A stretch of 64,000 nt of DNA from Candidatus Magasanikiibacteriota bacterium (GTDB lineage: Bacteria; Patescibacteriota; Patescibacteriia; Magasanikbacterales; GWA2-37-8). Of this stretch, positions 8,378 through 57,463 are shown piece by piece. The notes under the pieces were generated by a model that was not told the DNA's origin, ran no database searches, and saw only the letters and a list, made by a program, of their open reading frames with translations. How positions within the stretch are numbered: position 1 is the stretch's first letter; every line of letters starts with the position of its first letter. Location of the stretch: positions 128,875-192,874 of the forward strand of contig CAWJAS010000001.1 in NCBI GenBank assembly GCA_963840935.1. Reading direction: 5' to 3'. Both the position numbers and the translations under genes were made by a program.

Positions 8378-9523
8378 TTATTTTTTAATATATATTCTCC
8401 CATCTCCTTTATCTACGGTAAATGAATGGTGTTTGAGTCCGGTTGTGATGTCTTCCATTTCTTCTTCAAAATTCACAATGACGTTCGCATAAGGAGCGCT
8501 CACAACAATGCCTTTTTCGAATTCTCTAAAATAAGCATTGTTTTTTTGATAATATTTGCCTTTGGGGTCGCCCAAGTCGGCGTCATATTCCGGGAACCAC
8601 CATGCCTGCCCATGGTCGCGGGGTCCAAAATCATAAGTAAAATAAGTATTATCGTTAAGCAGACTCAAAGTCAAACCAAGCCTCATTTTCTTTAGATCTT
8701 TTTGGCCGGTGTCGTCGGTGTCAACGGCATAAATAATAAAATGACTGTCGTCAGATGCTTTTAAACCGTCATCAAAATTTGCTTTTAATTGATTACCCAA
8801 TAAATTTTCCATCAAATAACCGTCAAAATATTCTTTGAACTCATCAATGTCATAAATATCTTTGCCGGCGTTGAAAACAACTAATTTATTATTGGTATTG
8901 AGCTGTTTTATTTTTGCAAAAATATTTTTTGTCGTGTCTAGCCATTCGTCATTACTGATTGATTCGGGACACCACCATTGTTTTTCCGTAATCATATCGA
9001 CAATAATTCCATCGTGTTGCGGTTGTTTTAGAACGTTGTCGTAGAATGAAACTATAAGCTCAGTCCATTTTTTATTTCTTAAGTCCATCGCATAAATTTC
9101 TTCATGCCCCCATTTGTCAGAAGCCCATCCAAACGCGCATCGTTCACCGTTAGGCTTGTGTAAATACATGTCTTCCGTTATTTCAATTGGTTTTTTTTTA
9201 TCATAATTTGCAACAGTCGTAAGAAATGACATCCAATCTTTATTATCCCATGTCCAATTTACAGATAATCCGGCCAAAAGTTTAGCTTCAGGATTGGTTG
9301 TTTTAATTTCATCCGCCTCTTCTTGCGTGAACCATCCGGACATAACAAGCGAATATGGTTTTTTGCTCGATATTATTTCCTCTTTTTTTGCTAACCAACT
9401 GGCAATTTTGGGGAAGTCAGCTTTTTTTGCCTCTGGCGATTGAGTTTGTTCTTGTTCGCATCCACATAAAAAAAATACTCCAATAATCGTCCATGTTAAA
9501 AATATTTTTTTTATTTTGGTCAT
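8378..9523 (-). CDS. Putative lipoprotein, unknown function
   Basis: Signal peptide with lipobox-like FLCGC. Trp/Asp-rich body. No confident family call. Confidence 0.5.
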   Translation of the reverse strand: MTKIKKIFLTWTIIGVFFLCGCEQEQTQSPEAKKADFPKIASWLAKKEEIISSKKPYSLVMSGWFTQEEADEIKTTNPEAKLLAGLSVNWTWDNKDWMSFLTTVANYDKKKPIEITEDMYLHKPNGERCAFGWASDKWGHEEIYAMDLRNKKWTELIVSFYDNVLKQPQHDGIIVDMITEKQWWCPESISNDEWLDTTKNIFAKIKQLNTNNKLVVFNAGKDIYDIDEFKEYFDGYLMENLLGNQLKANFDDGLKASDDSHFIIYAVDTDDTGQKDLKKMRLGLTLSLLNDNTYFTYDFGPRDHGQAWWFPEYDADLGDPKGKYYQKNNAYFREFEKGIVVSAPYANVIVNFEEEMEDITTGLKHHSFTVDKGDGRIYIKK

Positions 9524-9598
9524 AAATTTAGTGGGAGTTTGCGCGCCGGAATGGCAGACCTGTCGCGAAAATATTTAAATTTCTAATTTTTTTGCTGG

Positions 9599-10069
9599 TT
9601 ATATTTTTTCGGGTTTGGTAAGCACATATTTTTCTTTTTGGTAATCGTTTTCGTATCTTGCATTACTTACTTTTTGTATGCCGGGTATTTTTTTAACGGC
9701 TTTAAGTGAGGGTGTATTATCTAAATTGATTGTGAATATGACAGATGGCAAATTCAGGGTATCTATTATGGCGTGGGTACATTTAGCCGAGAGCCCTTGC
9801 CCTCTGTATTCCGGTCTGATGACATAGTGAATGATATTTTTATCATCCTCGGTATCATAGACGCCGACAATTCCAATTTTTTCCCCATCTTCTGCGCATG
9901 CCGTAAAATAGCGTTGATTCGTGCAGTTTTCTTGCCCGAGTGCTATCCAGCCGCCTTCTCCTTCCAGCGATTTGAAATAATCCATATCAAAGTCATCCAG
10001 CTTGATATTGTCGATTTTATTTGCTGTTTCTCGTCGTATTCCATGATTGTGCCTATGTGTTTCAGACAT
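9599..10069 (-). CDS. GNAT family N-acetyltransferase (cassette-borne)
   Basis: VIRPEYRGQGLSAKCTHAIIDTL acetyl-CoA binding-like segment. Confidence 0.6.
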   Translation of the reverse strand: MSETHRHNHGIRRETANKIDNIKLDDFDMDYFKSLEGEGGWIALGQENCTNQRYFTACAEDGEKIGIVGVYDTEDDKNIIHYVIRPEYRGQGLSAKCTHAIIDTLNLPSVIFTINLDNTPSLKAVKKIPGIQKVSNARYENDYQKEKYVLTKPEKI

Positions 10070-10152
10070 AGTCTTTATAAAAATAAATTATCAAAATTTT
10101 ATTACAAGTAAATTCTATATAATGTTGCCGAATGTTATGGAACGAGGTTGGA

Positions 10153-10401
10153 TTATCTGTCATTTATCCTTTTTTTATATTTAAGATATCTTACAGTACC
10201 ATAAATAAATAATACAATTCCAAAAAGTATTGAGACCAAAGCCAATATGATGGAATATATTGCGGGAACAAACTTGATTAGAAATGCTCCTAAAACTAAT
10301 AATGCGAGTGCGGTTCTCCAATATGCCAAAAGCGTTCTCTCATTTGCCAGATGAGTTCTGTCTTGTGCCAAATAATCCCTTCGCGTATATTGTTCTTTCA
10401 T
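10153..10401 (-). CDS. DUF202/YidH-family small membrane protein
   Basis: RDYLAQDRTHLANERTLLAYWRTALALLVLGAF is the DUF202 signature. Two TM segments. Confidence 0.6.
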   Translation of the reverse strand: MKEQYTRRDYLAQDRTHLANERTLLAYWRTALALLVLGAFLIKFVPAIYSIILALVSILFGIVLFIYGTVRYLKYKKRINDR

Positions 10402-10465
10402 GTTTTTACTTTTTATTTTGTTAGTTAAATAATAATCGTCTATTAAATCCGGGCAATATTATCCA

Positions 10466-10552
10466 CAATGGGCGCGCTTATCCAATCGTTTCGCCCGGGC
10501 ACGAACTTTATGCTCGGGCGGGATGTTGGATAATCGTTGTTCGGCGATGTCG
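10466..10552. repeat. attC-like imperfect palindromic cassette-boundary repeat, family member 1
   Basis: acaATGGGCGCGCTTATCCAATCGTTTCGCCCGGGCACGAACTTTATGCTCGGGCGGGATGTTGGATAATCGTTGTTCGGCGATGT. Shares ends and GC-rich inner hairpin with copies at 15284-15348, 15790-15880 and 11649-11762. Confidence 0.7.
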
Positions 10553-10762
10553 TCGAATGTATCTGTATATTCGAATTTTTTTGCTTCTCTTTCATATTAT
10601 ATCAATAAAGAGTAAAGAAGCAAAAAATTGGGTGGAGTAAGCGAATGTATTGTTCTTCAGGCGTTAGCCTGCCGGCGATTTAGCCAGCAAAAAAGTGCTT
10701 TTGGGGAATTGGGGAAGCCATATTTCTGGCTTCCCCGTGTTGTGAATTGGATCATAGATTTG

Positions 10763-10945
10763 TTACTCCTCCTTTTTTTTCTTTTGCTCTAATTCCGGAA
10801 TGAGCGAAACATTTGCGTTTATGCCACAGAAAGGGCAACCATCTTCGTTTGGAGAAAATGTACGTCCACAACAATGACACATATGGCTGTCTGGTGTGAT
10901 AGCTTCGGTCGCTATCATATTTAACAATTGTTTAATCGCATGCAT
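10763..10945 (-). CDS. Small zinc-ribbon protein
   Basis: CHCCGRTFSPNEDGCPFCG. The CCGTGTTGTGaattgg core motif (10735-10750) immediately precedes its stop, as for other cassette genes. Confidence 0.4.
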   Translation of the reverse strand: MHAIKQLLNMIATEAITPDSHMCHCCGRTFSPNEDGCPFCGINANVSLIPELEQKKKKEE

Positions 10946-11240
10946 ACCAATCCTCCTTTTTTGATTTCATGAATCCAATTCCCTAAAAGTATTTTTTTAA
11001 AGAGCAATGTTTTTGATAGTGTATCCCGGCATGCAAAGTTCGCTTTGTAGATTTATTGACTATTGTTTGGACACCCGAATACTATTTTAGCTGGTTTTCG
11101 TTAAAATTGACACTTAATTAAGAAAAGCGAGTTTAGGGAAAAGGCGAGCCGAGCCTTTTCCCGGATATTAGGCGTTATGCGAAGGTGGGCGCACCGTCCT
11201 CGTTGCGTTTTCTCTCATCTTATTTTTTGCGGTCGTGGAC

Positions 11241-11269
11241 TTGACAGAATAGCTGTTATCCACTATATT
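11241..11269 (+). promoter_or_regulatory. Near-consensus sigma70-type promoter: TTGACA, 17 bp spacer, TATATT
   Basis: ttgacagaatagctgttatccactatatt. Followed by RBS AAAGGAGG and ATG at 11368. Confidence 0.6.
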
Positions 11270-11367
11270 AAAATGTCAATAGTTGAGAAATCATCTTTAA
11301 ACAAAAAGAGTGATTTCTCGTTATCGCGAGGATCCGCTCTTTAACAAAACCCAAAGGAGGCGTAAAA

Positions 11368-11559
11368 ATGAAGTTCGATGAAGCAAAAATGTTGGCTTCA
11401 CAGTGTGTGAAAGCTGCCAAGGAAGCTTGGTATGCGAATTTCGAAAATACCTATCACTCAGGCGATCTCAATAGAGAGGCTGTTGGCAGAATTGCAAATA
11501 CGCTTCTCGAGCGTTGTCTGGGGTCAGAGGGTGTGGAGAGACCCTCCAAAACTGAATAA
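11368..11559 (+). CDS. Small hypothetical protein (63 aa) in a self-contained promoter-RBS-ORF-terminator unit, opposite to the array orientation
   Basis: Strong promoter. RBS aaaggagg 8 nt upstream. Terminator immediately downstream. Confidence 0.5.
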   Translation: MKFDEAKMLASQCVKAAKEAWYANFENTYHSGDLNREAVGRIANTLLERCLGSEGVERPSKTE

Positions 11560-11576
11560 GAGCATATTCGGTTCAA

Positions 11577-11612
11577 ACGCAAGGCGTTGGCTATACAGTC
11601 GACGCCTTTTTT
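11577..11612 (+). terminator. Rho-independent terminator
   Basis: AAGGCGTtggctatacagtcgACGCCTTTTTTTAT. Confidence 0.7.
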
Positions 11613-11648
11613 TATGAGCAAAAAATAATTTGAAAGAAAATGTAGCCG

Positions 11649-11762
11649 AATGGGCGCGCTTATCCAATGAGTGTCGAAATTTGGGCCGAAGACAATTGAC
11701 ACTCATTTGAAATATAAATGTGTCAATTTTCTCTGAGCCAGATATGCCGTGTTGTGCGATGT
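11649..11762. repeat. attC-like cassette-boundary repeat (variant with different inner hairpin AATGAGTGTC...GACACTCATT)
   Basis: Starts aATGGGCGCGCTTATCCAAT. Ends GATATGCCGTGTTGTGCGATGT directly before the stop of the 11769-12146 gene. Confidence 0.65.
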
Positions 11763-11768
11763 TTAATT

Positions 11769-12146
11769 TCAATTCCGTAACGCTGATAAAGCACTGTCTA
11801 GTTTTTCAATCAGGTCTTCTTTGTCTGTATATTCTATAAAATTTTTACATACTACTTTCAGAGAACCAGATATTTTTGAACCTTTACGATAAATGCAGAT
11901 AATTGGACGCCCAAAAGAATCAGCCCAACCCAACTCAATCCCCAATCCAGTAGCAGGAAATGAAACTTCCGCAACCATTACATCGCACTTTTTTATAATG
12001 TCTTTCGTGACGAAATCACTTGCTTCTTGATAAATTTCATGTGGCAATATTATCTCATTTTCAGAGTTGAGCTTACTTTCTCTGATAGGTAAATATAATT
12101 CTTCCTTATAATTCAATTCTTTTGAGTGTCCAATGTATATTTTCAT
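11769..12146 (-). CDS. Nucleoside 2-deoxyribosyltransferase-like (flavodoxin-like fold) protein
   Basis: MKIYIGHSKELNY... N-terminus and size typical of the Nuc_deoxyri_tr2-like family. Weak. Loosely similar to the 15349-15762 product. Confidence 0.4.
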   Translation of the reverse strand: MKIYIGHSKELNYKEELYLPIRESKLNSENEIILPHEIYQEASDFVTKDIIKKCDVMVAEVSFPATGLGIELGWADSFGRPIICIYRKGSKISGSLKVVCKNFIEYTDKEDLIEKLDSALSALRN

Positions 12147-12164
12147 AAATAGTAATTAAAATTA

Positions 12165-12252
12165 AATTTCGTACAACGTATCGGCATATCTGATGTTGCG
12201 TAATAATATTGGCGAAACGTAGTGTAGCTAGATATACGCTGTTATCGGATAT
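12165..12252. repeat. attC-like cassette-boundary repeat
   Basis: aatttCGTACAACGtatcggcatatctgatgttgcg...GATATACGCTGTTATCGGATAT. Ends ~12 bp before the stop of the 12269-12760 gene. Confidence 0.55.
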
Positions 12253-12268
12253 AATCAAAATTTGATAC

Positions 12269-12760
12269 TCATTTGGGGCTAATTTTATTCAAAACCATTT
12301 TTAATGTAACAGGTCGATACCTGTTTTCTGGATATTTTTTTAATCTCTTTTTTACAAAGCCGCAAGACTCATATGCTTTAATAGCACGAATATTTTCAGG
12401 TCTGACTTCTAAATATGATTTTGAATACCCAAGCTTGCCAAATCCTAATGATAAGACCTTTTTGATTGCTTTCGTGCCAATTCCCTTATTCCAATACTCT
12501 TTTTCACCAATGACTATTGTAATTTCAAACGTATTTGAATCTTTATGCATTAATGCGAGATGGCCTATTGCTTTTTCATCATATTGAATAATGTAATGAT
12601 GATCTTTTTTGCTCTCAAACATTTTGAAAAAATATCCAGGGAGTTTTTCATCGAATTCATCAAAATTACCGCTGGTTAGAGCAATTAAATCATGATCTTT
12701 CCACCACTTGAGAAAGAGAGGAAGGTCTGTTTTTTTGATTTTTCTGAGCTTAATAGACAT
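12269..12760 (-). CDS. GNAT family N-acetyltransferase
   Basis: EKEYWNKGIGTKAIKKVLSLGF...AYESCGF. Confidence 0.8.
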   Translation of the reverse strand: MSIKLRKIKKTDLPLFLKWWKDHDLIALTSGNFDEFDEKLPGYFFKMFESKKDHHYIIQYDEKAIGHLALMHKDSNTFEITIVIGEKEYWNKGIGTKAIKKVLSLGFGKLGYSKSYLEVRPENIRAIKAYESCGFVKKRLKKYPENRYRPVTLKMVLNKISPK

Positions 12761-12812
12761 TTGTTAGTATAAAATTAGCCCCAATTACTTTAAATTAAAT
12801 TTTGATTATTTC

Positions 12813-12835
12813 CGATAAACGCTGTTAGGCGATGT
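12813..12835. repeat. Cassette-boundary core motif containing a perfect integron core-site heptamer GTTAGGC
   Basis: cgataaaCGCTGTTAGGCGATGT, 12 bp before the stop of the 12847-13341 gene. Confidence 0.55.
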
Positions 12836-12846
12836 AATAAAAAATA

Positions 12847-13341
12847 TTAGAAATCTGTTTCGCTTGGATCTATTGGTGCTGAAACAATCTTTGCCCTTTC
12901 TTGTTCAGTGATAAAGCTGCCTTCTTTGGGGACAATAGTCGCAAAGGGAGCGATGTGAACATCATCTGTTCCATTATCCAATCTCCAAAAACCGTACACT
13001 ACCCTGTGGCCAGGGTCTGTCACAGCCGCGTGTGCAATTTCATGTTCCATTAATTTATCAATGATATTTTTTTTACCACCAGCATCGATGAGGAATTTCC
13101 TCATCTCTTCAGCGGTATCAAATTCGTAGCAATCATCCTCATTCAGAATCGTTTCATATTTTTTTCGCAGTTCCTCACTTCTACCAGCTATTTCTTTTTT
13201 ATCTTTTATTCCAGCTTGGATAATTTCGCGCGTAATCGAAGTACGTTCACGAAGCCATCTTTTATAGTCATCAAGTTTTGTTTTTGGTTTTTTCATTTGT
13301 CTTGTTTCAGCATCCGTTTGTTCGATATGTGAGTGCTCCAT
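12847..13341 (-). CDS. Hypothetical protein with HExxH motif (MEHEIAHAAV), putative zinc metallopeptidase-like
   Basis: HEIAH motif. No other family assignment. Confidence 0.45.
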   Translation of the reverse strand: MEHSHIEQTDAETRQMKKPKTKLDDYKRWLRERTSITREIIQAGIKDKKEIAGRSEELRKKYETILNEDDCYEFDTAEEMRKFLIDAGGKKNIIDKLMEHEIAHAAVTDPGHRVVYGFWRLDNGTDDVHIAPFATIVPKEGSFITEQERAKIVSAPIDPSETDF

Positions 13342-13639
13342 ATAATTATTGAGGTTATTTTTTATTATGTCGCCGAATGTGTCCGAGTGTGCGAAGTTGG
13401 CTTTTCGGATTTATTGATTACTATTTTAGCTGGTTTTCGCTTAAATTACCACCAAACAAAGAAAGGCGAATTTGGGAAAAAGTTGAGCCGAGCAATTTTC
13501 CTTTTATCCCTTGTTATATGACCCGAACGGAATGAAATGGAGTGAGAGCGCATCGTGGCGCGACTGGAAGGAGCGAATTTTGCCAAACAAATAATTACCT
13601 TATTATTAGAGCTCTTTTGAAATTTTTCGGTGGGTGGGT

Positions 13640-13668
13640 TTGACATTTTTAACTGGATGTGATTTAAT
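13640..13668 (+). promoter_or_regulatory. Sigma70-type promoter: TTGACA, 17 bp spacer, TTTAAT
   Basis: ttgacatttttaactggatgtgatttaat. RBS caggagaaagcc before ATG at 13717. Confidence 0.5.
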
Positions 13669-13716
13669 TTACTATTCCGGCTCTGGTAGTTAGCCGGATA
13701 AACACAGGAGAAAGCC

Positions 13717-14094
13717 ATGCTTTACGCAATTGTTCTAGGGGCAGCGTCAGTGTCGGTAATTGTTGTTCTTTCATTTTTCTGCAACAAAATAGTGGAACGG
13801 CTAGAGTTAGGCCTGTCTTTATTCTACCATCCCTCGTGGATGATGCTGCGTCCATTAAATACACCTAGAAAAGTAATGATTTTTTTCTTTCGGTGGTTGC
13901 CAACGGCGCTATATTTAGTCGCGATAGTATTGTATGGTATCTTCAACCCATCAGAGGGGCTTGGAGACAAATTAATCCTTATCGGCGTTTTTTTTGCGTC
14001 GCAGGTGTTGGTTTCGTGTATTCTGTTGAGGGCTCATACGCACATTCTGGTCAAGAAGTACAGTAAATTAATTTCAAGTAGGTGCAAGCAGTAA
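13717..14094 (+). CDS. Hypothetical 4-TM membrane protein in a second self-contained reverse-oriented unit
   Basis: Hydrophobic segments. Own promoter and terminator. Confidence 0.5.
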   Translation: MLYAIVLGAASVSVIVVLSFFCNKIVERLELGLSLFYHPSWMMLRPLNTPRKVMIFFFRWLPTALYLVAIVLYGIFNPSEGLGDKLILIGVFFASQVLVSCILLRAHTHILVKKYSKLISSRCKQ

Positions 14095-14111
14095 AAGAGC
14101 CAAGGTTCCAT

Positions 14112-14145
14112 GCCCGCATAGATTAACATCTGCGGGCTTTTTTTA
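14112..14145 (+). terminator. Rho-independent terminator
   Basis: GCCCGCatagattaacatctGCGGGCTTTTTTT. Confidence 0.75.
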
Positions 14146-14414
14146 AAAAATTTTAAAAAAGAGCTTAATTCAAATTGTCAAAATTATTTGTTTGGCAAAA
14201 TTGCGAATAACAGTCAGGAATATCCGATGTTTTTGCGACCAACGGAAGCAAAAATATGGGTGAGATAATTTTTTATTCCTTATTATAATTTATATTGAAA
14301 AATTATTGAACCAGATATTCCTTGTTATCTGATGTAAATTTTTATCTTCGTCTTTGATGAACTTAATCTTGTTTTCGCACTAAAAATTTTTGTTTTGCCG
14401 AATGGCAAAACAGA

Positions 14415-15191
14415 TTATTTGGGGGTATTTATTATTTTTTTTAATTGTTCAATGTGTAATTCTTTTATTTCTTCAAATTCTTGTGAGGTATTTTTACCAT
14501 CCTTCATGATTGAAAATGTTTCAAGTAATATCGTACCGTCATATCCAATTGAATTCAGCTTGGAAATAATTCCATCGACTTTGGCTTGATTATCATAGAA
14601 TAAATGATCAAAATCTCCAATATTATCATGAAGATGAATATGTCCAATTTTGCCGCTAAAAATATCAATAAACTTATTCAACTCAGAGATTCTGTTGGCG
14701 TGTCCAATATCAAGGGTGATATTTGCATTAGGAATTTTTTCCAATAATTTCAAAATATTGTCGGCGGAATTATATGGCGCGCTTGAAACATTTTCAATCA
14801 ATAACTGCATGTTATTTTTTTGCAAAACAATATTTATTTCATTAAAGATTTCAGCATTTTCCTCTGTGTTCAAATTTTGATGCGGGTGAATCGTAATTTT
14901 TTTTGCACCCAAATCTCTCAATATCTCGATATTTTTTACGATTTCATCAAATTTAACAATATCCCAATGAATATGTCCTAAAACTTCAAAGTTTGTAGTC
15001 GCATTTTTTAAGTCGAAAAAAATATCATCGATGGTTTTTAGCACTTCTGGCTGAATAGTGATTTCCGTAAAATCAAAATATTGTTTTGCAAATTCAATTT
15101 CTGTGAGTAGGTCTCCTCTAAAACCCGACATATATCCAAATTTCATATTTTCGTTATTAAAAAAATAAAAAATATCTCTAAATAATTCCAC
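14415..15191 (-). CDS. Sugar phosphate isomerase/epimerase, xylose isomerase-like TIM barrel (AP endonuclease 2 fold)
   Basis: ITIHPHQN, DIGHANRISE, GHIHLHDN, metal-ligand pattern of the family. Confidence 0.75.
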   Translation of the reverse strand: MELFRDIFYFFNNENMKFGYMSGFRGDLLTEIEFAKQYFDFTEITIQPEVLKTIDDIFFDLKNATTNFEVLGHIHWDIVKFDEIVKNIEILRDLGAKKITIHPHQNLNTEENAEIFNEINIVLQKNNMQLLIENVSSAPYNSADNILKLLEKIPNANITLDIGHANRISELNKFIDIFSGKIGHIHLHDNIGDFDHLFYDNQAKVDGIISKLNSIGYDGTILLETFSIMKDGKNTSQEFEEIKELHIEQLKKIINTPK

Positions 15192-15283
15192 CTTTGACGG
15201 AAAACTTATAAAAAAACAAATTTTCGTCCTCGTTCAACGCACCAGAGCCTGAAATTATTACAAAGATAAAAATTTATTTCACA

Positions 15284-15348
15284 TAATGGGTCGCGGTTAT
15301 CCCATCGTCCCGCCCGGGCACGAACCTCATATTCGGTGTTGTACGATG
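15284..15348. repeat. attC-like cassette-boundary repeat, deletion variant lacking the right inner arm
   Basis: cataATGGGTCGCGGTTATCCCATCGTCCCGCCCGGGCACGAACCTCATATTCGG|TGTTGTACGATGT. Ends at the stop of the 15349-15762 gene. Confidence 0.7.
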
Positions 15349-15762
15349 TTAAATAATTTTTTTCAAATCACCATTAATAATAATCGGCTTAACTGCCTCA
15401 ATTTCAGTTTTACAATAAGGCATTTCGGGAATTGGGTTTAGCATGAAAACCTTTTGATTTAACACGTAGGCAAAACCGATTTCCATTAAAGTATTGCCGC
15501 CTACATAATTTTGGACGCCATTTTTATCAAGATTCAAAACAAGCACGGCATCTGCTCCTTGCATCATACGCCAAAATTCACGGATGGCGTCCATATTGTA
15601 TTTTTGGTGAAGTTTGATTTCTTCAATTTCGGAATCGGTTTTGCCCACCATTGCCTTATGCAAATCCGTGACAAATGCGTCATGCCCCAATTCCCGAAGT
15701 TTTTCACGATACTCAAGCATTTTATCGGTAAATTGCATTGAGCCGATTATTCCTATTTTCAT
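15349..15762 (-). CDS. Nucleoside 2-deoxyribosyltransferase-like protein
   Basis: MKIGIIGSMQFTDKMLEYREKLRELGHDAF...LVLNLD. Flavodoxin-like pattern. Confidence 0.45.
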   Translation of the reverse strand: MKIGIIGSMQFTDKMLEYREKLRELGHDAFVTDLHKAMVGKTDSEIEEIKLHQKYNMDAIREFWRMMQGADAVLVLNLDKNGVQNYVGGNTLMEIGFAYVLNQKVFMLNPIPEMPYCKTEIEAVKPIIINGDLKKII

Positions 15763-15789
15763 AAAAGATTTGAAAAAAATTATTTAATT

Positions 15790-15955
15790 TCGTACAATGG
15801 GTCGCGGTTATCCCATCGTCCCGCCCGGGCACGAACCTCATGTTCGGGCGGGATGTGGGATAACCGCTGTTATGCGATGTCGCGCGAGCAACTCGCAGAA
15901 CAGCGGGCACCGCGACCCATTATGCAAAATCGCTCACGCGATTTTGCATAATGTT
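15790..15955. repeat. Full-length attC-like palindrome plus additional nested hairpins; gene-less cassette-like segment
   Basis: cgtacaATGGGTCGCGGTTATCCCATCGTCCCGCCCGGGCACGAACCTCATGTTCGGGCGGGATGTGGGATAACCGCTGTTATGCGATGT. Then GCGCGAGcaaCTCGC, an inverted copy CCGCGACCCATT, and a perfect hairpin ATGCAAAATCGCtcacGCGATTTTGCAT. Confidence 0.7.
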
Positions 15956-16315
15956 TTTGGACATGCGAAGTTAAAAAACCCCGCCACCTTGACTTAATTG
16001 TATCAAAAAGAGCGGGGTTTTTCAATTTGGGAGGGGGCTTTCGAGGAAAGCCCGAACCGCATGTCCAGTGTTATGTGATTTATACTTTTCCTTTTATCCG
16101 TTAGGGTCGCTTTTCTATTTTAGGGCAAATTTGGTTTTGTCTTTCTTTGAGCTGAGAGGTTGGAGCGGATGCCCAAAAGTAAAGACGCATTATTGGAAGT
16201 TAGTAAGAAAAACGTCCGAAATTGAAGAAGGGGTCGCAACATCTGTTGCGACCCCTTTGGGGTTTTGCTGGCCTCCCGAGTTTCCTCAGCTTGCCAGACG
16301 GCGTAGCCGATCTCG

Positions 16316-16753
16316 TCACTCCACGACGGTCGTTTGACCGCGGCCAAACTTGCCATGGTTCCAGCCCGCACCGTTGATGTCAGTCACGGAGTGAACGTGT
16401 ATGGAGAGCAATTGGTCGAAGGCTTGGTCTGTATCGGGGTTCCCCGTGCGGTACTCGATCCACATGGGCTGGCCGACCGGCACATCATGAAAGGTCTCTG
16501 GAATATTGCCGTAACACCCTTGTCCGAAGGAATACTGAGCGACAGTGCCATCCGGCTTCTCCATGAGAAAGGTGTAACGCGACGGTTCGTGCATCAGGAC
16601 GCGAGAAACACCATCCATGCGCTTGGTCTCGGTCCAATCTATTGCACCAAGGGTCCGGTAGACGAAGGCCATGAGACCTAAGGACACAACCAGGAGAATG
16701 GAGACGGACAGGATGATCAAAGGAACATGAAACTTTTCCCTAATACGCTTCAT
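16316..16753 (-). CDS. Hypothetical N-terminally membrane-anchored protein; visibly GC-rich relative to flanks
   Basis: N-terminal TM segment. Codons are G/C-ending. Two consecutive hairpins downstream at ~16228-16262. Confidence 0.5.
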   Translation of the reverse strand: MKRIREKFHVPLIILSVSILLVVSLGLMAFVYRTLGAIDWTETKRMDGVSRVLMHEPSRYTFLMEKPDGTVAQYSFGQGCYGNIPETFHDVPVGQPMWIEYRTGNPDTDQAFDQLLSIHVHSVTDINGAGWNHGKFGRGQTTVVE

Positions 16754-16989
16754 TGTAATTTCCTCCGTGTGTGGTGAGGTCGCTTTATCGTGTAAAGCGA
16801 CACATAATTATATCACAAAAAAACGACCCTGTCAAGAGTCGCGCATCAAAAATCTTCTTAATTTAGCCAAAATTTAGAAAATCGTCCCGCCGAGAATACG
16901 GCGGGTTACCATATTCTCCCCTCTATAAAAAATGAAAAATCAAATTTGCCCAATATAGAAAAGCGAAAGGGCATTCGGCCCTTAAAAGG

Positions 16990-17101
16990 AAAAGTGTATT
17001 TCACATAACGTTTCGGGATATCCGACGTTTCGCCACTTCCATTAAAAAATAATTTAGTGTGGCGAAATGTGGCTTTAGCCCTTGCGGATATCCCGTGTTG
17101 T
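16990..17101. repeat. attC-like imperfect palindrome with perfect CGGATATCCG palindromic boxes
   Basis: cacataACGTTTCGGGATATCCGACGTTTCGCCAC...GTGGCGAAATG...GCGGATATCCCGTGTTGTGCGAC. Ends ~30 bp before the stop of the 17133-17690 gene. Confidence 0.7.
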
Positions 17102-17132
17102 GCGACCCGAAGGGCTTGAGTTGCAAAAACTT

Positions 17133-17690
17133 TTATTCCTTATTTTTGTTTTGATTTCTATTAAAAATAGCCATGGATAAAAAGTCATAAAACTTTCCTT
17201 TGTAAAAAACTTCATCTTTCATCTTGCCTTCGATAACAAAGCCTAAAGATTTATACAAGTTAACTGCTGGAGTATTATCTTTGATGACGCCTAAATTAAT
17301 CTTATGAAGTTTTTGTTTTGTAAATCCATAATCGATTATCCATTCCATGGCAATTTTTCCAATTCCCTTACCGCGATAGTCGTCTTCTCCAATAGCAATA
17401 AACAAATCTGCATTTTTATTCGGTTTACTAATGTTTGATAGTCCTATAAATCCTATTGGCTTAGAATTATCACAAATAGTGAAAAACTTTTTGTTTTTAG
17501 CTTTTTTATAATTAGCAAACCATTCCTTTTCTTTTTGCAGATTTGTTTTTTGCCCCAATTCATCACCAATAAACTTATTGACATTGGGATTGCTCAACCA
17601 CTTGACGCGGCAAGGGATATCTTTTTCTAAATGTTTTCTTATTTTTATCATAAAGAAATCAAAACAAATTAAATTTAAAAGTTTTTGCAA
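17133..17690 (-). CDS. GNAT family N-acetyltransferase (RimJ/RimL-like); first cassette next to the recombinase remnant
   Basis: KVKWLSNPNV, DYRGKGIGKIAMEWIIDYGF, LYKSLGF. Confidence 0.75.
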   Translation of the reverse strand: MQKLLNLICFDFFMIKIRKHLEKDIPCRVKWLSNPNVNKFIGDELGQKTNLQKEKEWFANYKKAKNKKFFTICDNSKPIGFIGLSNISKPNKNADLFIAIGEDDYRGKGIGKIAMEWIIDYGFTKQKLHKINLGVIKDNTPAVNLYKSLGFVIEGKMKDEVFYKGKFYDFLSMAIFNRNQNKNKE

Positions 17691-17877
17691 TTTCGCACAA
17701 CTACCTTTATCATGACTAGTGGTAAAAACCGCTAAAATATGATAAAATTTTTGAGAAATTGGGGTTATAGGCGACGAAGGTGAGAGAAAAGCAAATTGAT
17801 TTGCTTTTCCGAGCCAAGGAGCTTATATACTGTGTATATAGCCCCTGGGGGTATAACGGATTAATATTATCAAGAAT

Positions 17878-18311
17878 TATGAAGGAGGGCAACACTTTTG
17901 ATAATTTGGCTAGGGAATTGCGTATTCGCAATTACAGCAAAAAAACCGCTAATTCATATATTCGGTATAATCAGGAGTTTTTGCGGTTTTGCGAAAAAGA
18001 CCCGCGTGAAGCAACGGCCGAGGATATAAAGAATTATTTGGATTATTTAGCTCAAGAATGGTCGTGGAAGCAGATTAACCGAATCAACTATACAAAAAAT
18101 CGTGGTTTCAACAGCCAAAAAAGCGGGGATTGCCAAAAATGTGACACCGCATACCTTGCGCCATTCGTTTGCCACGCATTTGCTAGAAAATGGCACGGAT
18201 ATACGGTATATTCAAGAATTGTTGGGGCATGCCAAGCTTCAGACCACCCAAATCTACACTCATGTGGCAAATAATAATTTAAAAAATATTGTGAGCCCGC
18301 TCGATGTATGA
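17878..18311 (+). pseudogene. intI-like: Integron-integrase-like tyrosine recombinase remnant: N-terminal SAM-like domain fused out of frame to the C-terminal catalytic tail; ~180 codons of the central domain are missing
   Basis: N-terminal part [61 protein letters not shown] parallels IntI1 [30 protein letters not shown]...EVEAFLSWLANE. After a frame change near 18050, [61 protein letters not shown]...VSPLDV matches the IntI/Xer C-terminus, including the HxxR and catalytic Tyr regions and the SPLD ending. Confidence 0.7.
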
Positions 18312-38405: not shown

Positions 38406-38518
38406 GTGTTTTGAGTAATTTTAAATATTTTATATAAAAATTCTCGGCTTCGGGCTGCGAGCTTTTTGTTTTGAAAGTGCCACCACAGTATTTAATCGCG
38501 AAATTCTTAACAAATATT

Positions 38519-38545
38519 AAAGAGGCGTCGGGTGACGCCTCTTTG
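38519..38545. repeat. Hairpin AAGAGGCGtcgggtgaCGCCTCTTT, left boundary of the GC-rich island; direct copy of the hairpin at 39792-39822
   Basis: Compare AAAGAGGCGTCGGGTGACGCCTCTTT with AAAGAGGCGCCACGAGGCGCCTTT. Confidence 0.6.
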
Positions 38546-38576
38546 GGATGGAATGATCTGGGATGAAAAGAGCGGG

Positions 38577-39662
38577 CTACTCGCCGTTCGCGGCGATGGC
38601 GGCTTCGACCTCCTCGGCCGAAACCACCGACTCCTGGCGACCGACGAGGCGGCGCGTGCGCTTGCCGCTATTCACGTGGTCGAGGAGCAGGGTGTAGAGG
38701 ATCTTGTGCGCCGTACCGCCCGCGCTGGCCAGGTTGCGTACCTGCGGGTCGTTGATCGGGAATTGGGCGATCTTGCGCGCCAGATCCCTTTCGATGTAGA
38801 GGCGCTTGTCCCGCCAGAAGGTGGTGTGGCGCGAGAGCAGGAGCGCCAGGCACATCAGGAAGGTGAGGCGCAGGTGCGTCGCGCCCTCTTTGAAGGTGAC
38901 GACCCTGATGCCCCAGGCCTTGTCGACCAGGTCGAAGAAGGTCCTGATGTTCTCGCGCAGGATGTTGCGCCCGACGCGGTTGTGGATCACTTCGATGCCA
39001 CGACCGAGTTCCCGCCAGCCGTTGCTGAGACCGGGACCGACATGCGAGTGCAGGGCGCCGATGACCTTGGCGAAGGACACGGCGCTGATCAGCTGCTCGC
39101 GCGTCTGGCGCTGGCACCAGGATACGCGGTTGACGAGCACGAAGTCCGGGTCGAAGAGCGTCAGGTTGTAGATCGTCTCGATGGCTGGGATGTCCGCCCG
39201 CATGTTGCGCAGGAGGATGTTCGAGTTGACCTTGGTCCGGTCGGCGTTGAGGATGCGGAAGCGCTCGCGCTCCCACTCCTCGTTGGAGTTGAAGTGCACC
39301 GTGGCTCCGAGCCGGGGTTTGGCGTCCTCGTAGCGGCGCATCATCTCGCGGGCCGCGGTTACCCGTTGGAGCCCGTCGATGATGTAGACGTCGTTCGGCA
39401 GGACGAAGACGCCCGGCTCGCGCTCGCGGAAGTTCCCTCCCCGGGCCCCGAGATCGATGTCGGGAATGGGGTCGCCCTTGACCATCGCGTCGATAATCTC
39501 GTTGATGGTCTGAATGGGGAGAACCTCGCGCTGGTACTCGGCCTGCTTGAACAGACCGAAGGAGTCCGGATCGATCACCCCGCGTAGGATGATCGTGCCT
39601 CCGGACACCTCGTCCAGTGCTCCGTGGTACAGCTTCACACAGTCCCTGTCCTTGTTGCCCAT
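38577..39662 (-). CDS. ParB/sulfiredoxin-fold DGQHR/DndB-like (DUF262-like) domain protein, GC-rich foreign gene
   Basis: VYIIDGLQRVTAARE core resembling the DGQHR/DGQQR motif of DndB/DUF262 ParB-like nuclease domains. ~360 aa as in DndB. Start taken at MGNKDRD with RBS aaaggagcccaacATG. The plus-strand ORF 38532-39587 is the antisense shadow. Confidence 0.5.
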   Translation of the reverse strand: MGNKDRDCVKLYHGALDEVSGGTIILRGVIDPDSFGLFKQAEYQREVLPIQTINEIIDAMVKGDPIPDIDLGARGGNFREREPGVFVLPNDVYIIDGLQRVTAAREMMRRYEDAKPRLGATVHFNSNEEWERERFRILNADRTKVNSNILLRNMRADIPAIETIYNLTLFDPDFVLVNRVSWCQRQTREQLISAVSFAKVIGALHSHVGPGLSNGWRELGRGIEVIHNRVGRNILRENIRTFFDLVDKAWGIRVVTFKEGATHLRLTFLMCLALLLSRHTTFWRDKRLYIERDLARKIAQFPINDPQVRNLASAGGTAHKILYTLLLDHVNSGKRTRRLVGRQESVVSAEEVEAAIAANGE

Positions 39663-39791
39663 GTTGGGCTCCTTTCTTGTGCGGGGTATGGCTCCCGAAG
39701 GATAGCTACCCGCACATGTTGTAAGAAACGCGTTCAAAGTAACACATTTTGCGCTTTTTGTCAAGACACCAGGAGCCGACGTCGGTTTGTA

Positions 39792-39822
39792 TAAAAAGAG
39801 GCGCCACGAGGCGCCTTTACGT
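39792..39822. repeat. Hairpin AAAGAGGCGccacgagGCGCCTTT, right boundary of the GC-rich island; also acts as the minus-strand terminator for the 39837-40190 gene
   Basis: See 38519-38545. Confidence 0.6.
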
Positions 39823-52830: not shown

Positions 52831-53034
52831 GTCCTTCGCACGCCGGTTTGGTTTCGCGCTAGGTCTGCCGGCTCATCATGACGTGCCTGCCTCCTTCTCT
52901 GTATTGGTTAGAGGTTTTTGGAATCTGAATAAAATGATAACATATTTTTTTGCAGATTGACAAGAGTTTCAAAATGTAATATGTTATTTTGTTAAATAGC
53001 GTTCTTTTTTATATCTCGGTTTTCTTTGGGCCAA

Positions 53035-53100
53035 TATCATTGTCATTCCCGCGAAGGCGGGAATCTGAGAAACGTGGATCCCCGATCAGGTCGGGGATGA
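53035..53100. repeat. Inverted pair of TGTCAT(T/C)CCCG boxes, each with its own hairpin; related box TGTCATTCCGATCGG at 50302-50316
   Basis: TGTCATTCCCGCGAAGGCGGGAATC ... GATCCCCGATCAGGTCGGGGATGACA. Confidence 0.55.
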
Positions 53101-53195
53101 CAGTTGTTGATCAAAAGAAGACCGGGATACAAAACCGGCATCCTTTCGGCCAGTTTGGTCGGAAGTATTTCCCACTTTGGGAAAGGAGAACGCAA

Positions 53196-53906: not shown

Positions 53907-53939
53907 GCCGATTTGCTCTTTCATCATCTTTTGCCTGTC

Positions 53940-53990
53940 GGCAGGCAAGCTTGGGTCCTTGGTACTTTGGTATCTTGGGCCCTTTTTTAT
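53940..53990 (+). terminator. Second copy of the GGTACTTTGGTA-type terminator hairpin
   Basis: GGGTCCTTGGTACTTTGGTATCTTGGGCCCTTTTTTATT. Confidence 0.7.
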
Positions 53991-54134
53991 TCCCTTGACA
54001 AACTCCGCCTCATCATATATCCTATTCACGAACGTTAAAACTTTGCCTTGGCCCATCTAACCAAGGCAAAGAGTAAACCTTTAGCAAAAATCGTGGCTGA
54101 TTTTAACAAAGGTCAGCTTTTTTATTTAAAAATT

Positions 54135-57161: not shown

Positions 57162-57189
57162 ACCCGTCGCTCTCGAGCGGCAGGTTAAA

Positions 57190-57228
57190 TTAAAAAAACA
57201 CCTTGACGAGTATCAAGGTGTTTTTAAT
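57190..57228. terminator. Bidirectional terminator after fusA
   Basis: ACACCTTGAcgagtaTCAAGGTGTTTTTAATT. Confidence 0.7.
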
Positions 57229-57230
57229 TA

Positions 57231-57434: not shown

Positions 57435-57463
57435 ATTTTAGTTATTATAGGCATAACATGCCT

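Follow-up and report, generated by a model that had tools for sequence, protein, structure and literature searches.

In canonical integrons, attC recombination needs the additional domain of the integrase IntI. No IntI-type domain is involved when XerCD integrates CTX phage DNA, which is single-stranded and folded, and in the XerS/difSL and XerH/difH systems the dif site lies next to the recombinase gene. The locus studied here is part of a 64-kb stretch of DNA, referred to as the window; the genome that matches it best is a Candidatus Magasanikbacteria MAG, in agreement with the CPR-like genome proposed in a first-pass annotation. An 8-kb region of this window holds a genuine array of exchangeable single-gene cassettes, integron-like and by now disabled.

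Results

Organization and content of the array

The array spans 9.53–17.70 kb and comprises about 14 cassettes, 11 of them with a gene, and attC-like sites between them (Table 1). The cassettes lie beyond the attI-like site, on the far side from the recombinase, and are mostly transcribed away from it; the attC-like repeats all point one way. Nine of the 11 genes are on the minus strand and those of cassettes 6 and 10 are not, so that the nearly uniform orientation first described holds with two exceptions. The last cassette adjoins the conserved GHL15 gene (8378-9523). Neither a target-site duplication nor a transposase is present at the array.

On the gene-sense strand, a cassette starts with TTRYRYGAAAT and has ACATCRYAYAA-C at its end, after which comes an attC-like element of its own. 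All the core motifs quoted in the first-pass annotation were found at their positions; the canonical GTTAGGC occurs in a single one, and the core that they share is GTTRYRY then GATGT. The pattern TGTTRNNBGATNT matched the 64 kb 7 times, always on the plus strand and within 11750-16081 (compare 7 with a mean of 1.25 in shuffled sequences, 0 of 100 of which reached 7). A covariance model (CM) built from the attC-like sites gave 8 matches in the 64 kb with default filters and E<=10, all in 10459-17108; with filters off, no match outside the array in the window was better than E=0.65.

As for the cargo, Pfam confirmed the three GNAT proteins, DUF202 and the AP_endonuc_2 TIM barrel, while the two Nuc_deoxyrib_tr matches of the presumed deoxyribosyltransferases stayed sub-threshold and the cassette 6 protein had no Pfam match. 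The HExxH and zinc-ribbon proteins are visible in the translations as HEIAH and CxCC..CxxC motifs. Two gene-less intervals had been taken for empty cassettes. The one at 14213-14358 is not a cassette, since one long attC-like hairpin occupies 14200-14335; the other, 15881-16080, includes a genuine gene-less cassette (cassette 3), the rest being the attC-like site of cassette 2.

Table 1. Coordinates of the platform, cassettes and attC-like sites in the window, from the recombinase outwards.
Feature	Position	Strand	Description
Tyrosine recombinase remnant	17879..18311	+	tblastn with intact L030 enzyme; blastn vs L035
Conserved leader	17702..17878	+	between attI-like site and recombinase start codon; alignments
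attI-like core site, 11-6-11	17690..17717	+	ATTTCGCACAA CTACCT TTATCATGACT
Cassette 1	17098..17700	-	GNAT acetyltransferase 17133-17690, Pfam; ends TTGTGCGA / TCGCACAA
Cassette 1 attC-like site	16998..17108	+	well formed; DNA fold -25.7 kcal/mol, z = -6.2; CM 48.1 bits
Cassette 2	16071..17008	-	GC-rich 145-aa protein of unknown function, 16316-16753; own sigma-70-type promoter 16835-16807; terminator-like hairpin 16257-16228
Cassette 2 attC-like site	15942..16081	+	well formed, long variable loop; DNA fold -29.9 kcal/mol, z = -5.4
Cassette 3	15870..15951		gene-less; holds inverted attC fragment, CM match on minus strand 15890-15929
Cassette 3 attC-like site	15787..15880	+	well formed; DNA fold -29.7 kcal/mol, z = -6.2; CM 57.7 bits
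Cassette 4	15339..15797	-	nucleoside 2-deoxyribosyltransferase-like, 15349-15762; Pfam sub-threshold
Cassette 4 attC-like site	15276..15349	+	degenerate, palindrome without 3' half; z = +1.0, no stable fold
Cassette 5	14325..15286	-	xylose-isomerase-like TIM barrel 14415-15191; Pfam AP_endonuc_2 1.4e-20
Cassette 5 attC-like site	14200..14335	+	well formed, long AT-rich loop; DNA fold -18.6 kcal/mol, z = -4.2
Cassette 6	13514..14210	+	125-aa membrane-like protein, 13717-14094
Cassette 6 attC-like site	13366..13524	+	second sequence family, shared with 11008-11185; direct repeats
Cassette 7	12825..13377	-	164-aa protein with HEIAH motif, 12847-13341
Minimal junction	12809..12835	+	two arms and 6-nt spacer only: TTTCCGATAA ACGCTG TTAGGCGATGT
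Cassette 8	12242..12818	-	GNAT acetyltransferase 12269-12760, Pfam
Cassette 8 attC-like site	12166..12252	+	partly decayed; fold z = -0.6; CM 26.2 bits, E = 5e-4
Cassette 9	11752..12176	-	second deoxyribosyltransferase-like protein, 11769-12146; Pfam sub-threshold
Cassette 9 attC-like site	11640..11762	+	decayed; fold z = -0.7; arms read from sequence
Cassette 10	11175..11650	+	63-aa ORF 11368-11559; boundaries less certain; own promoter-like site 11241-11269; terminator-like hairpin 11581-11608
Decayed array part	10540..11185		approximate boundaries; 18-nt empty unit 10540-10557 and degenerate attC-like sequence
Second-family attC-like site	~11008-11185		inside decayed part
Zinc-ribbon ORF	10763-10945	-	inside decayed part
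DUF202 cassette attC-like site	10458..10550	+	well formed; fold z = -3.2; CM 46.8 bits
Cassette 13	10135..10468	-	DUF202 membrane protein 10153-10401; Pfam 5e-17
Last cassette	9530..10132	-	GNAT acetyltransferase 9599-10069, Pfam; degenerate 3' site 9530-9598

The attI-like site and the recombinase

The platform has three parts: a tyrosine recombinase of about 273 aa (intact in relatives), a conserved leader, and a double-stranded attI-like core made of two 11-bp arms flanking a 6-bp spacer. Cassettes and platform meet between 17700 and 17701 (plus strand, AA|C; gene-sense strand, G|TT). When the window was aligned with L001/L002, L014, L020-23, L026-30, L035 and L036, conservation started exactly at C|TACCTTTAT and the leftward sequence was different in each locus. 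The site of L037 has the same architecture with CAGTCT as spacer. Besides the window, 15 metagenome or genome loci share the conserved attI-like sequence, with the same junction base (...AA|C) and another cassette beyond each; because the spacer TACCT is invariant at all TACCTTTAT-type junctions, we placed the crossover at AA|C. Within the leader are a promoter-like TATGATAAAAT and a palindrome, GGTTATAGsCCC...GGGsTATAAC, which in the window is broken by about 66 inserted nt (17771-17836, blastn gap versus L035).

What had been called an intI-like remnant is indeed the remnant of a recombinase gene. It survives as two pieces out of frame with each other, one coding for residues 1-67 (17879-18079) and the other for residues 190-273 (18057-18308, plus stop). 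A deletion of about 380 bp (~122 codons) took most of the catalytic domain, so that the N-terminal Phage_int_SAM_4 domain is followed by no more than its final third, in the other frame. Of the 15 related loci, 11 have the gene beside the attI-like site, and its orientation with respect to the sites never changes; intact copies are among them (7 complete ORFs of 273-283 aa; two others are cut by a contig end and two are apparently split). This family is equally close to VchIntIA (180 bits) and XerA (178 bits) and is 33% identical to IntI1, and its best NCBIfam model above cutoff is XerA (256.9 versus a cutoff of 220). The IntI-specific additional domain was looked for in the family and is absent, meaning that the enzyme is not a canonical IntI and that the platform falls outside the bona fide integrons; no canonical IntI was found in the window or in any compared locus. 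Close recombinases form more than 120 clusters, the named ones all from Magasanikbacteria. No arrays were seen with homologues at 44-48% identity, and the association thus holds only for the Magasanikbacteria clade.

Architecture of the attC-like sites

The strand antisense to the genes folds from the R arm through a 3-5 nt bulge into a covarying L helix of 10-11 bp and a loop, which is the R''-L''-loop-L'-R' architecture with unpaired bases that the first reading had called for. The core of the L helix is conserved (TATCC/GGATA), the closing loop varies from 10 to 150 nt, and the folded element mimics an 11-6-11 core site. A palindrome had been described at every junction; strong hairpins are present at 5 of about 13 (z from -3.2 to -6.2) and the other 8 sites are degenerate. 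Among 16 sites from 9 loci the architecture is uniform: nearly all have the 3-5 nt bulge and a 3' spacer of 1 nt, and there are 13 distinct L'' sequences. The L helix is 97.9% paired, a percentage inflated since the sites were picked for their well-formed look and the register was set by maximizing pairing; both sides changed at 8 of the 11 pairs, and registers slid by one to three columns paired at 29-46%.

The cassette 3 site belongs to the family with GGTTATCCC...GGGATAACC, as does that of the DUF202 cassette, and shows compensatory changes in the copies from L008, L010, L011 and L014. The cassette 1 site has a counterpart in L035 (9412-9504) and that of cassette 6 an 82% match to L010 (1820-1909). 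The CM gave 27.5 bits (E = 2e-4) for the cassette 4 site and 14.1 bits (E = 0.57) for the minimal junction, which is devoid of L boxes and loop. Run against three class 1 integrons, it found none of the attC sites of about 10 annotated cassettes. As double-stranded DNA, every L'-spacer-R' half also makes up a full 11-6-11 site, and these sites are direct repeats; ordinary double-strand Xer-type recombination at them would yield identical arrays.

Complementary cassette ends

In most cassettes the ends are complementary over 20-30 nt, the longest stretch being about 90 nt, and a mismatch of 2 nt at positions 9-10 is conserved. The ends match at 29/32 positions in cassette 4, 24/32 in cassette 5, 25/32 in cassette 8 and 20/32 in cassette 9. 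By direct reading, cassette 1 has 15 nt more of end complementarity (TTGCAAAAACTTTTA) if 15 nt of the left arm are treated as an insert; terminal inverted repeats reach about 90 nt in cassette 2, and cassette 6 has a perfect 21-nt repeat (13576-13596 / 14182-14202). Over the 21 positions beyond the core, 7 of 11 cassettes have 11-20 matches between their own two ends, compared with a mean of 6.2 and a maximum of 13 for non-self pairs over the same positions. In the comparison across loci, a partner matching at least 22 of 30 positions was found for 14 of 35 cassette starts and for none of 34 upstream controls. In contrast, the few class 1 integron cassettes checked have no complementary ends of 20-30 nt. 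On excision the first bases of a cassette would always rejoin its own attC, so that its two ends could co-evolve. Their pairing would probably give the circular intermediate the long duplex required by an Xer-type enzyme without the extra-helical-base-binding domain of IntI.

Cassette turnover among related loci

In a related genome, the syntenic locus L035 reads GHL15, three unrelated cassettes, attI, recombinase and SpoU; in the window, the same flanks enclose about 14 cassettes. The presence/absence differences sought by the first-pass annotation thus take the form of complete turnover between conserved flanks, and the same cassette occurs in different arrays. In the L014 array the last GNAT cassette of the window recurs as second unit (77% identical), and a unit 95% identical to the gene-less cassette 3 lies directly at the attI-like site; this empty cassette and its attC are common to both arrays but the next downstream cassette differs. 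Cassette 2 has a 79% identical copy with other neighbours in the array L031/L032. From such comparisons among genomes, we infer that the cassettes are mobile.

Discussion

The recombinase might be the single housekeeping Xer of the lineage, the attI-like site the chromosomal dif next to its gene, and the array a pile-up of small integrative elements that make use of Xer (IMEX- or dif-module-like) instead of a dedicated cassette platform. The XerA assignment, the dif-like site (11-6-11 with inner ATAA/TTAT), the conservation and synteny of the gene across Magasanikbacteria and the folded CTX phage integration by XerCD agree with this. Loss of a sole dimer resolvase would, however, be unexpected, and the gene is deleted in the window genome, with no recombinase ORF following the attI-like site in L021 and L014. 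Moreover, the genes diverge from the site instead of converging on it, the L037 site directly precedes tuf and the S10 ribosomal operon, a place usually near the origin, and the positive GC skew of plus-strand genes on both sides of the array shows that no replichore switch occurs at 17.7 kb. Two attI-like sites in the L014/L035 genome, and units that are single promoterless genes with hairpin sites, unlike phage- or plasmid-like IMEX elements, also make us regard this reading as unlikely. It is very unlikely that we are dealing with debris of a canonical integron (CALIN), that is, ordinary cassettes moved by an IntI encoded elsewhere or in other organisms and lying beside an unrelated Xer-like gene. 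The cassette organization, hairpins and AAC/GTT triplets, like the cargo of GNATs and small unknowns, are what integrons typically have, and CALINs are common and make up the majority in Archaea (PMC9668308). Against this stand the recombinase adjoining the insertion site in constant orientation in 11 of 15 loci (7 complete ORFs), the lineage-specific site consensus (GTTRYRY-GATGT, TATCC L core), the lack of CM matches in the three class 1 integrons and the absence of canonical IntI from the window and all loci.

REP/MITE-like palindromes or transcription terminators between small genes, with no recombination platform, would account for the GC-rich hairpins that directly follow several stop codons, the terminator-like stems of some cassettes and the MITE-like inverted repeats flanking each gene. 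Such repeats would be expected at non-cassette places, and none lies elsewhere in the 64 kb; their orientation is uniform, and they come with no target-site duplication and no transposase. Boundaries at one exact base beside a recombinase-linked site in 15 loci besides the window, and whole units exchanged between genomes, already contradict this explanation, which we find barely credible. The integron-like reading of the first-pass annotation is supported, all the tests run from its own list having turned out in its favour, and it was correct because its wording was cautious ('integron-like', 'attC-like', 'intI-like remnant').

For an integron-like platform, we propose that the recombinase would cut both partners after ...AA, in attI and in the R arm that the antisense (bottom) strand forms on folding. 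One strand would be exchanged and replication would resolve the product, by analogy with integrons and with CTX-phage/XerCD integration, so that new cassettes would enter next to attI; recombination of two attC-like sites would excise a cassette as a circle. Altogether, the region is probably a sedentary integron-like cassette platform typical of Candidatus Magasanikbacteria (CPR), frozen in the window genome because an internal deletion destroyed the recombinase. Deprived of this enzyme the array could only decay, which fits with its 8 degenerate sites. With a recombinase lacking the integron-integrase domain and with its unusually long end pairing, the array appears to be a variant integron not described before.

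The array and its cargo

The array consists of 8.2 kb of small genes lying between a conserved GHL15-family gene and the remnant of a tyrosine recombinase gene. Of its cassette genes, nine are read from the minus strand and two from the plus strand. Pfam assignments were obtained for three GNAT proteins, one DUF202 protein and one AP_endonuc_2 TIM barrel, and two other proteins were weakly nucleoside-deoxyribosyltransferase-like. Pfam assigned no family to the remaining genes, one of whose products contains a HEIAH motif and another a zinc-ribbon-like cysteine pattern.

The first-pass annotation had quoted a series of junction motifs abutting the stop codons of these genes, and every one of them was recovered exactly where it had been placed. 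The pattern TGTTRNNBGATNT matched seven times in the 64 kb of the window, each time on the plus strand and within positions 11750-16081; shuffled versions of the window gave a mean of 1.25 matches and none of 100 shuffles reached seven. A search of the window and the related loci against Rfam, from which an attC family is absent, returned only a tRNA and spurious hairpin matches at both gathering and E-value thresholds.

Elsewhere in the window, two segments have a G+C content of 53%, compared with about 39-40% for the genome. They contain long ORFs overlapping on both strands, without Pfam or Rfam match, and are probably foreign genes. An 18-nt tandem repeat was also noticed.

Features of the array, of the window and of related loci (window positions unless a locus is named)
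Feature	Position or locus	Detail
GHL15-family gene	8378-9523 (−)	
Well-formed junction	10457-10550	z = −3.2
Junction	12809-12835	pared down to two arms and a 6-nt spacer
Well-formed junction	14200-14335	z = −4.2
Well-formed junction	15787-15880	z = −6.2
Well-formed junction	15942-16081	z = −5.4
Well-formed junction	16998-17106	z = −6.2
CCCGA inserts	17106-17120; 13522-13575; L010 about 1868-1925	
Recurring cassette leader	16754-17008 (cassette 2); L020 1375-1490; L031 2258-2500; L030, L036 and L037	in L030, L036 and L037 just left of the attI-like site
attI-like site	17690-17717	ATTTCGCACAA-CTACCT-TTATCATGACT
Insertion in leader palindrome	17771-17836	about 66 nt
Recombinase remnant	17879-18311 (+)	
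G+C-rich segments	38500-39800; 52900-54100	53% G+C
Tandem repeat	57264-57315	ATCTGTTTCGGCGACACC, 2.3-2.9 copies, inside or next to ORF 57106-57441
Second attI-like site of one genome	L014 4021-5400	L035 on the same 628-kb contig
Reverse transcriptase gene	L020 226-1323 (+)	
Type I restriction-modification system and Abi_C gene	L037 2901-9716	
Five large genes, first RadC-like	L027 459-7751	stored orientation
Complete recombinase ORF	L020, L028, L029, L030, L035, L036, L037	273 aa
Complete recombinase ORF	L022	283 aa
Recombinase gene cut by contig end	L023, L026	
Recombinase gene called as two ORFs	L001/L002	tblastn aligns full length

Cassettes join a conserved attI-like site at one exact base

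Immediately right of cassette 1 lies the attI-like site, next to which comes a conserved leader of about 60 nt. Scanning public metagenomes for the conserved part of this site gave nine real loci which, with those found through proteins or the attC motif, brought the set to 15 loci besides the window. The conserved sequence starts at the identical base, C|TACCTTTAT, both in the window and in 14 of these loci, and the sequence left of it is different in each, always closing in an arm of the ATTTC...AA type. Read on the gene-sense strand, the junction is ...GGTAG|TT in all of these, each time with a different cassette. The fifteenth locus, L037, has the same 11-6-11 layout with the spacer CAGTCT. 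As in integrons, the attI-like site adjoins the recombinase gene and the cassettes are inserted at G|TT.

We then compared the contents of related arrays. The syntenic locus of a related genome (L035; Candidatus Magasanikbacteria MFD04716.bin.1.125) has three cassettes (HD, a 290-aa protein and a glyoxalase) in 2.5 kb between GHL15 and recombinase-SpoU; none of the three is common to the window, and the flanks and two attC-like sites are homologous. A second array of that genome, L014, starts with attI-like sequence at another chromosomal position. Its first unit is the gene-less cassette of the window together with its attC (95% identical) and its second unit is the last GNAT cassette of the window (77% identical). 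This arrangement means that the attC moves with the upstream cassette and, since the TACCT spacer is invariant at all TACCTTTAT-type attI junctions, the crossover falls at AA|C on the plus strand, that is, at G|TT on the gene-sense strand. The same two facts led us to reject a crossover at the invariant G|TT of the plus strand. Cassette 2 was found again (79% identical) in the array L031/L032, complete with promoter, leader, gene and terminator; its neighbours there are an asparaginase-like gene on one side and an uncharacterised 194-aa gene on the other. Taken together, the layout of the platform, the exact junction and the turnover of cassettes are demonstrated, and genome comparison suggests that the cassettes are independently mobile. 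Contigs often end at these arrays, as repeated sites would cause.

Several features of the attI-like region and its immediate neighbours deserve mention. In the window, an insertion between the attI-like site and the recombinase start splits a conserved palindrome, GGTTATAGsCCC...GGGsTATAAC, which is similar to the L box that attC-like sites contain and may serve as an operator to which the recombinase binds. The two attI-like sites of the Magasanikbacteria genome differ in their surroundings: the one in L035 adjoins an intact recombinase, and the one in L014 has none and heads a small array lying between homologues of the window's 41.7 kb and 40.2 kb regions. The first array position left of the attI-like site in L020 is taken by a reverse transcriptase gene oriented opposite to the cassettes; its product matches Pfam RVT_1, scores 131.8 bits against TIGR04416 (group II intron RT/maturase), below the cutoff of 300, and Rfam detected no group II intron RNA domains nearby. 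Directly beside the attI-like site of L037, before the small cassettes, come a type I restriction-modification system and an Abi_C gene; in L027 the corresponding place is occupied by a block of five large genes, the first of them RadC-like. Because of such large defence-type sets, the site may capture defence islands as well.

The attC-like sites form a conserved hairpin

A complete junction, read on the plus strand and thus antisense to most cassette genes, starts with the arm ATTTCRYAYAA, followed by C or T. After this arm come 3-5 unpaired bases and a 10-11-nt helix strand with a conserved TATCC core, then a variable loop of 10-150 nt and a 3' half composed of the complementary helix strand (GGATA core), one base and G-TTRYRCGATGT. 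When folded as single-stranded DNA, five junctions gave structures far better than their shuffled counterparts (see the z-scores in the table), and for these the palindrome previously proposed at each junction stands; the rest are truncated or decayed, the decayed sites amounting to 8 of about 13 in the window. The sites have the R''/L''/L'/R' boxes, the AAC/GTT triplets, the unpaired bases and the variable end of an attC, with deviations in the consensus, GTTRYRY, and in a bulge of 3-5 nt in place of single extrahelical bases.

Sixteen sites were gathered from the window and from eight loci related to it; nearly all shared this geometry, and 13 different L-helix sequences were counted among them. 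We aligned 13 sites with their loops taken out. The L helix was 97.9% paired, an optimistic figure because well-formed sites had been selected and the register was set by pairing, and 8 of its 11 pairs varied on both sides; how many different types of compensated pair occur is a sounder measure than the percentage. Registers shifted by 1-3 columns gave pairing of only 29-46%. The R helix was 74% paired, a lower value being expected since its two strands stem from different cassettes in an array. These data demonstrate a hairpin architecture with covariation.

A covariance model built from this alignment gave eight matches in the window, all within 10459-17108, including four sites absent from the training set, two of them weak (E = 0.57 and E = 1.8). 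It gave 18 matches in the related loci, all oriented as expected from the recombinase gene, and none in loci having only distant recombinase homologues. There was no match either in 45 kb of class 1 integrons, which shows sequence distance and is not equivalent to running the attC model of IntegronFinder on this array. Searches with the filters off, in which true sites scored lower than by default, probably because the long loops exceed the model's window, were used solely to show the absence of good matches elsewhere. A stringent hairpin scanner of our own missed most sites and was dropped, and scanning the genome collection with the attC inner motif gave 12 matches, eight of which were chance or coding matches in high-GC genomes. 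Three loci (L008, L010 and L011) of a MAG labelled uncultured Gammaproteobacteria, SRP093185_co1_62, are contigs of 39-42% G+C with the CPR-type attC family, and their array matches sit at contig ends; either these are misbinned CPR contigs or the cassettes have spread across phyla.

The two ends of a cassette are complementary

Every cassette gene is bordered by an inverted repeat. We compared the two ends of each cassette from the crossover, over the 11-nt arm and then the next 21 positions. Within the arm the ends match everywhere but at positions 9-10, where a 2-nt mismatch is conserved (GATGT versus GAAAT). Over the next 21 positions, 7 of the 11 window cassettes had 11-20 matches, compared with a mean of 6.2 and a maximum of 13 for non-self pairs, and cassettes 1 and 6 pair likewise if a short insert is allowed at the mismatch position. 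The arms of cassette 2 reach about 90 nt. Over all loci, 14 of 35 cassette starts had a partner matching at least 22 of 30 positions and ending exactly at AA followed by C/T, and none of 34 wrong-side controls did so. In three class 1 integrons submitted to the same scan, end complementarity did not exceed 11 nt (aac(6')-Ib), detectable cassettes being too few for a proper control. Integron-type recombination always reunites the first bases of a cassette with its own attC in the excised circle, so that end pairing can be selected, and we infer that the long pairing makes the R stem longer and more stable in the circular intermediate.

Two further elements were seen at cassette ends. Some cassettes carry short GC-rich inserts starting with CCCGA (as in GACCCGAAGGG) in the stop-codon-side arm, exactly at the conserved 2-nt mismatch; these inserts are possibly a small secondary insertion element, or else an extra hairpin. 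Unrelated cassettes of several genomes also share a conserved leader of about 130-250 nt at their attI-proximal end, composed in order of TTATGTGAAAT, CTTTTCCTTTT, a small GC hairpin, an AT-rich stretch, AGAGGGGAGAATATGGT and a CCCGCCG...CGGCGGG hairpin. This leader has no Rfam match, and cassette 2 has a second, inverted copy at its opposite end, which gives the arms of about 90 nt.

The recombinase lacks the additional domain of IntI

A recombinase gene follows the leader in 11 loci (12 identifiers, L001 and L002 being copies of one locus) and is often followed in turn by a SpoU methylase gene, in the window too. The window copy keeps residues 1-67 and 190-273, in different frames, so that about 380 bp are missing; the enzyme is inactivated here and can no longer rearrange its own array. 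No recombinase ORF was found after the attI-like site in L021 or L014.

The intact enzyme aligned with VchIntIA (2a3v) at 180 bits, in two pieces skipping IntI4 residues 190-240, and with Thermoplasma XerA (5hxy) at 178 bits, in one piece. Among curated profiles, the NCBIfam model NF040815 (recomb_XerA_Arch) scored 256.9 bits, above its cutoff of 220, and the XerC and XerD models remained well under theirs. The integron integrase model TIGR02249 reached 238.9 bits, below its cutoff of 265, again in two pieces with profile positions ~181-237 skipped. Identity with IntI1 was 33%, with a gap of ~45 aa at residues 194-248. What these alignments skip, both in VchIntIA and in IntI1, is the additional domain specific to IntI, which we looked for by alignment in the intact relatives and found absent. 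Integron integrases are described as tyrosine recombinases that carry this domain around patch III (Messier & Roy 2001, cited in PMC9668308).

More than 120 protein clusters at 63-99% identity were recovered, and every named one is from Candidatus Magasanikbacteria. The NCBI pipeline calls them 'site-specific tyrosine recombinase/integron integrase', a name that is supplied by the XerA model. Distant homologues at 44-48% identity (L015, L016 and L018) had no arrays and no repeats, and the association can thus not be extended to all short CPR/DPANN recombinases.

Discussion

Integrons are defined by an integrase whose extra domain reads flipped-out bases in folded attC DNA. The array described here is functionally and architecturally an integron, and yet not an integron by the definition of the field, because this domain was tested for and is absent. 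It resembles sedentary chromosomal integrons (for example the Vibrio cholerae superintegron with VchIntIA and VCR attC) and their degraded forms (CALIN) in its divergent tyrosine recombinase gene beside an attI-type site, its mostly promoterless single-gene cassettes, and cassette-end imperfect palindromes with AAC...GTT triplets, R/L boxes, unpaired bases and a variable loop. The G|TT crossover, sites that are more alike within than between lineages, a cargo rich in GNATs and unknowns, complete cassette turnover between related genomes and frequent loss of the integrase are also common to both. In contrast, the recombinase is a ~273-aa protein without the ~50-aa additional domain and below the TIGR02249 cutoff, and its CPR host has a genome of ~0.77 Mb. 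There are also departures in the sites and cassette ends: the core is GTTRYRY with a conserved GATGT/GAAAT extension instead of GTTRRRY, the unpaired bases form a bulge beside the cleaved arm, and the ends pair over 20-30 nt or more, compared with 7-11 nt in the class 1 cassettes checked. Archaeal integrons (Ghaly et al. 2022, PMC9668308) likewise occur in uncultivated, often small-genome lineages, DPANN included, with semi-conserved attI-type sites, and are mostly attC clusters without recognisable IntI; however, the archaeal IntIs reported so far possess the additional domain, those arrays were detected by means of the canonical attC model, and here a specific recombinase devoid of this domain is physically linked to the insertion site.

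The most serious alternative is a Xer/dif system on which IMEX-like units have piled up. Single-recombinase Xer systems (archaeal XerA/dif, XerS/difSL, XerH/difH) share with the present one the length and domains of the enzyme, an XerA-like best above-threshold profile, a dif-like 11-6-11 core site and a recombinase gene beside it, and the gene is lineage-wide. However, the gene seems dispensable here, being deleted in the window, and no recombinase ORF follows the attI-like site in two other loci; nor does the site look terminus-located: transcription diverges from it, it adjoins tuf and the S10 operon in L037, it occurs twice in one genome, and the window has no skew switch independent of gene strand, GC skew being only weak evidence on the terminus because gene orientation dominates it in 20-kb loci. 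Moreover, unlike elements that exploit Xer, the units here are integron-type cassettes in an ordered array growing from one fixed site, and we consider a Xer/dif origin of the array unlikely. The pdif modules of Acinetobacter are small gene units bounded by Xer sites; where those sites alternate in orientation, the core sites and covariance model matches of the array are all on one strand, as direct repeats of hairpin elements, and the inverted repeats on either side of a gene correspond to the two halves of adjacent hairpin sites. The direct-repeat arrangement also led us to reject a shufflon or an invertible segment.

A canonical integron whose IntI is encoded elsewhere is contradicted by a recombinase gene that is repeatedly found physically linked to the insertion site, and we hold it to be quite improbable. 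There is very little chance that the junctions are REP/MITE or terminator repeats, since they are confined to the arrays, uniform in orientation and exact at their junctions, and whole units are exchanged.

As to the mechanism of this integron-like system, the polarity of tyrosine recombinases, with the arm 5' of the cleavage, suggests that the exchanged strand would be the plus strand of the window (bottom relative to the genes), cleaved behind ...AA as in integrons. As the CTX phage with its folded attP shows, a Xer enzyme is able to recombine single-stranded DNA folded into a hairpin whose central region is bulged, by exchange of one strand. On the model of integrons and of XerCD/CTX phage, the site would be used folded and single-stranded, one strand would be exchanged and replication would resolve the product. 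Alternatively, recombination may be of the ordinary double-strand kind, between L'-spacer-R' halves, each half being a complete 11-6-11 site in direct repeat.

The literature searched contained no description of either integrons or integron-like arrays from CPR/Patescibacteria. A 2026 survey that used IntegronFinder detected no attC in 97% of the contigs carrying 'integron-type' recombinases (PMC13323075), a result for which the present system is a practical lead. We see about an even chance that Magasanikbacteria, and perhaps other CPR/DPANN, have an active, lineage-wide integron-like capture system with a Xer/IntI-like enzyme devoid of the additional domain and an R stem extended by 20-30 bp of cassette-specific pairing. 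If true, this system would represent a sister or ancestral form of the integron that has survived, or else have been invented independently from Xer, and would help to explain why most of the 'integron-type' recombinases and attC clusters of environmental metagenomes fail to assemble into canonical integrons. The question of how integrons arose from Xer-type recombinases becomes testable with a concrete, sequence-resolved platform of integron style, whose enzyme stands between XerA and IntI without the additional domain. This enzyme may recombine folded sites, and the long cassette-specific stem may replace the missing domain. For the bacteria themselves, a restriction-modification system and a reverse transcriptase are found at the same attI-like site in relatives, and CPR bacteria, whose genomes of less than 1 Mb are thought to be streamlined, maintain a dedicated hot spot for the acquisition of accessory and defence genes.
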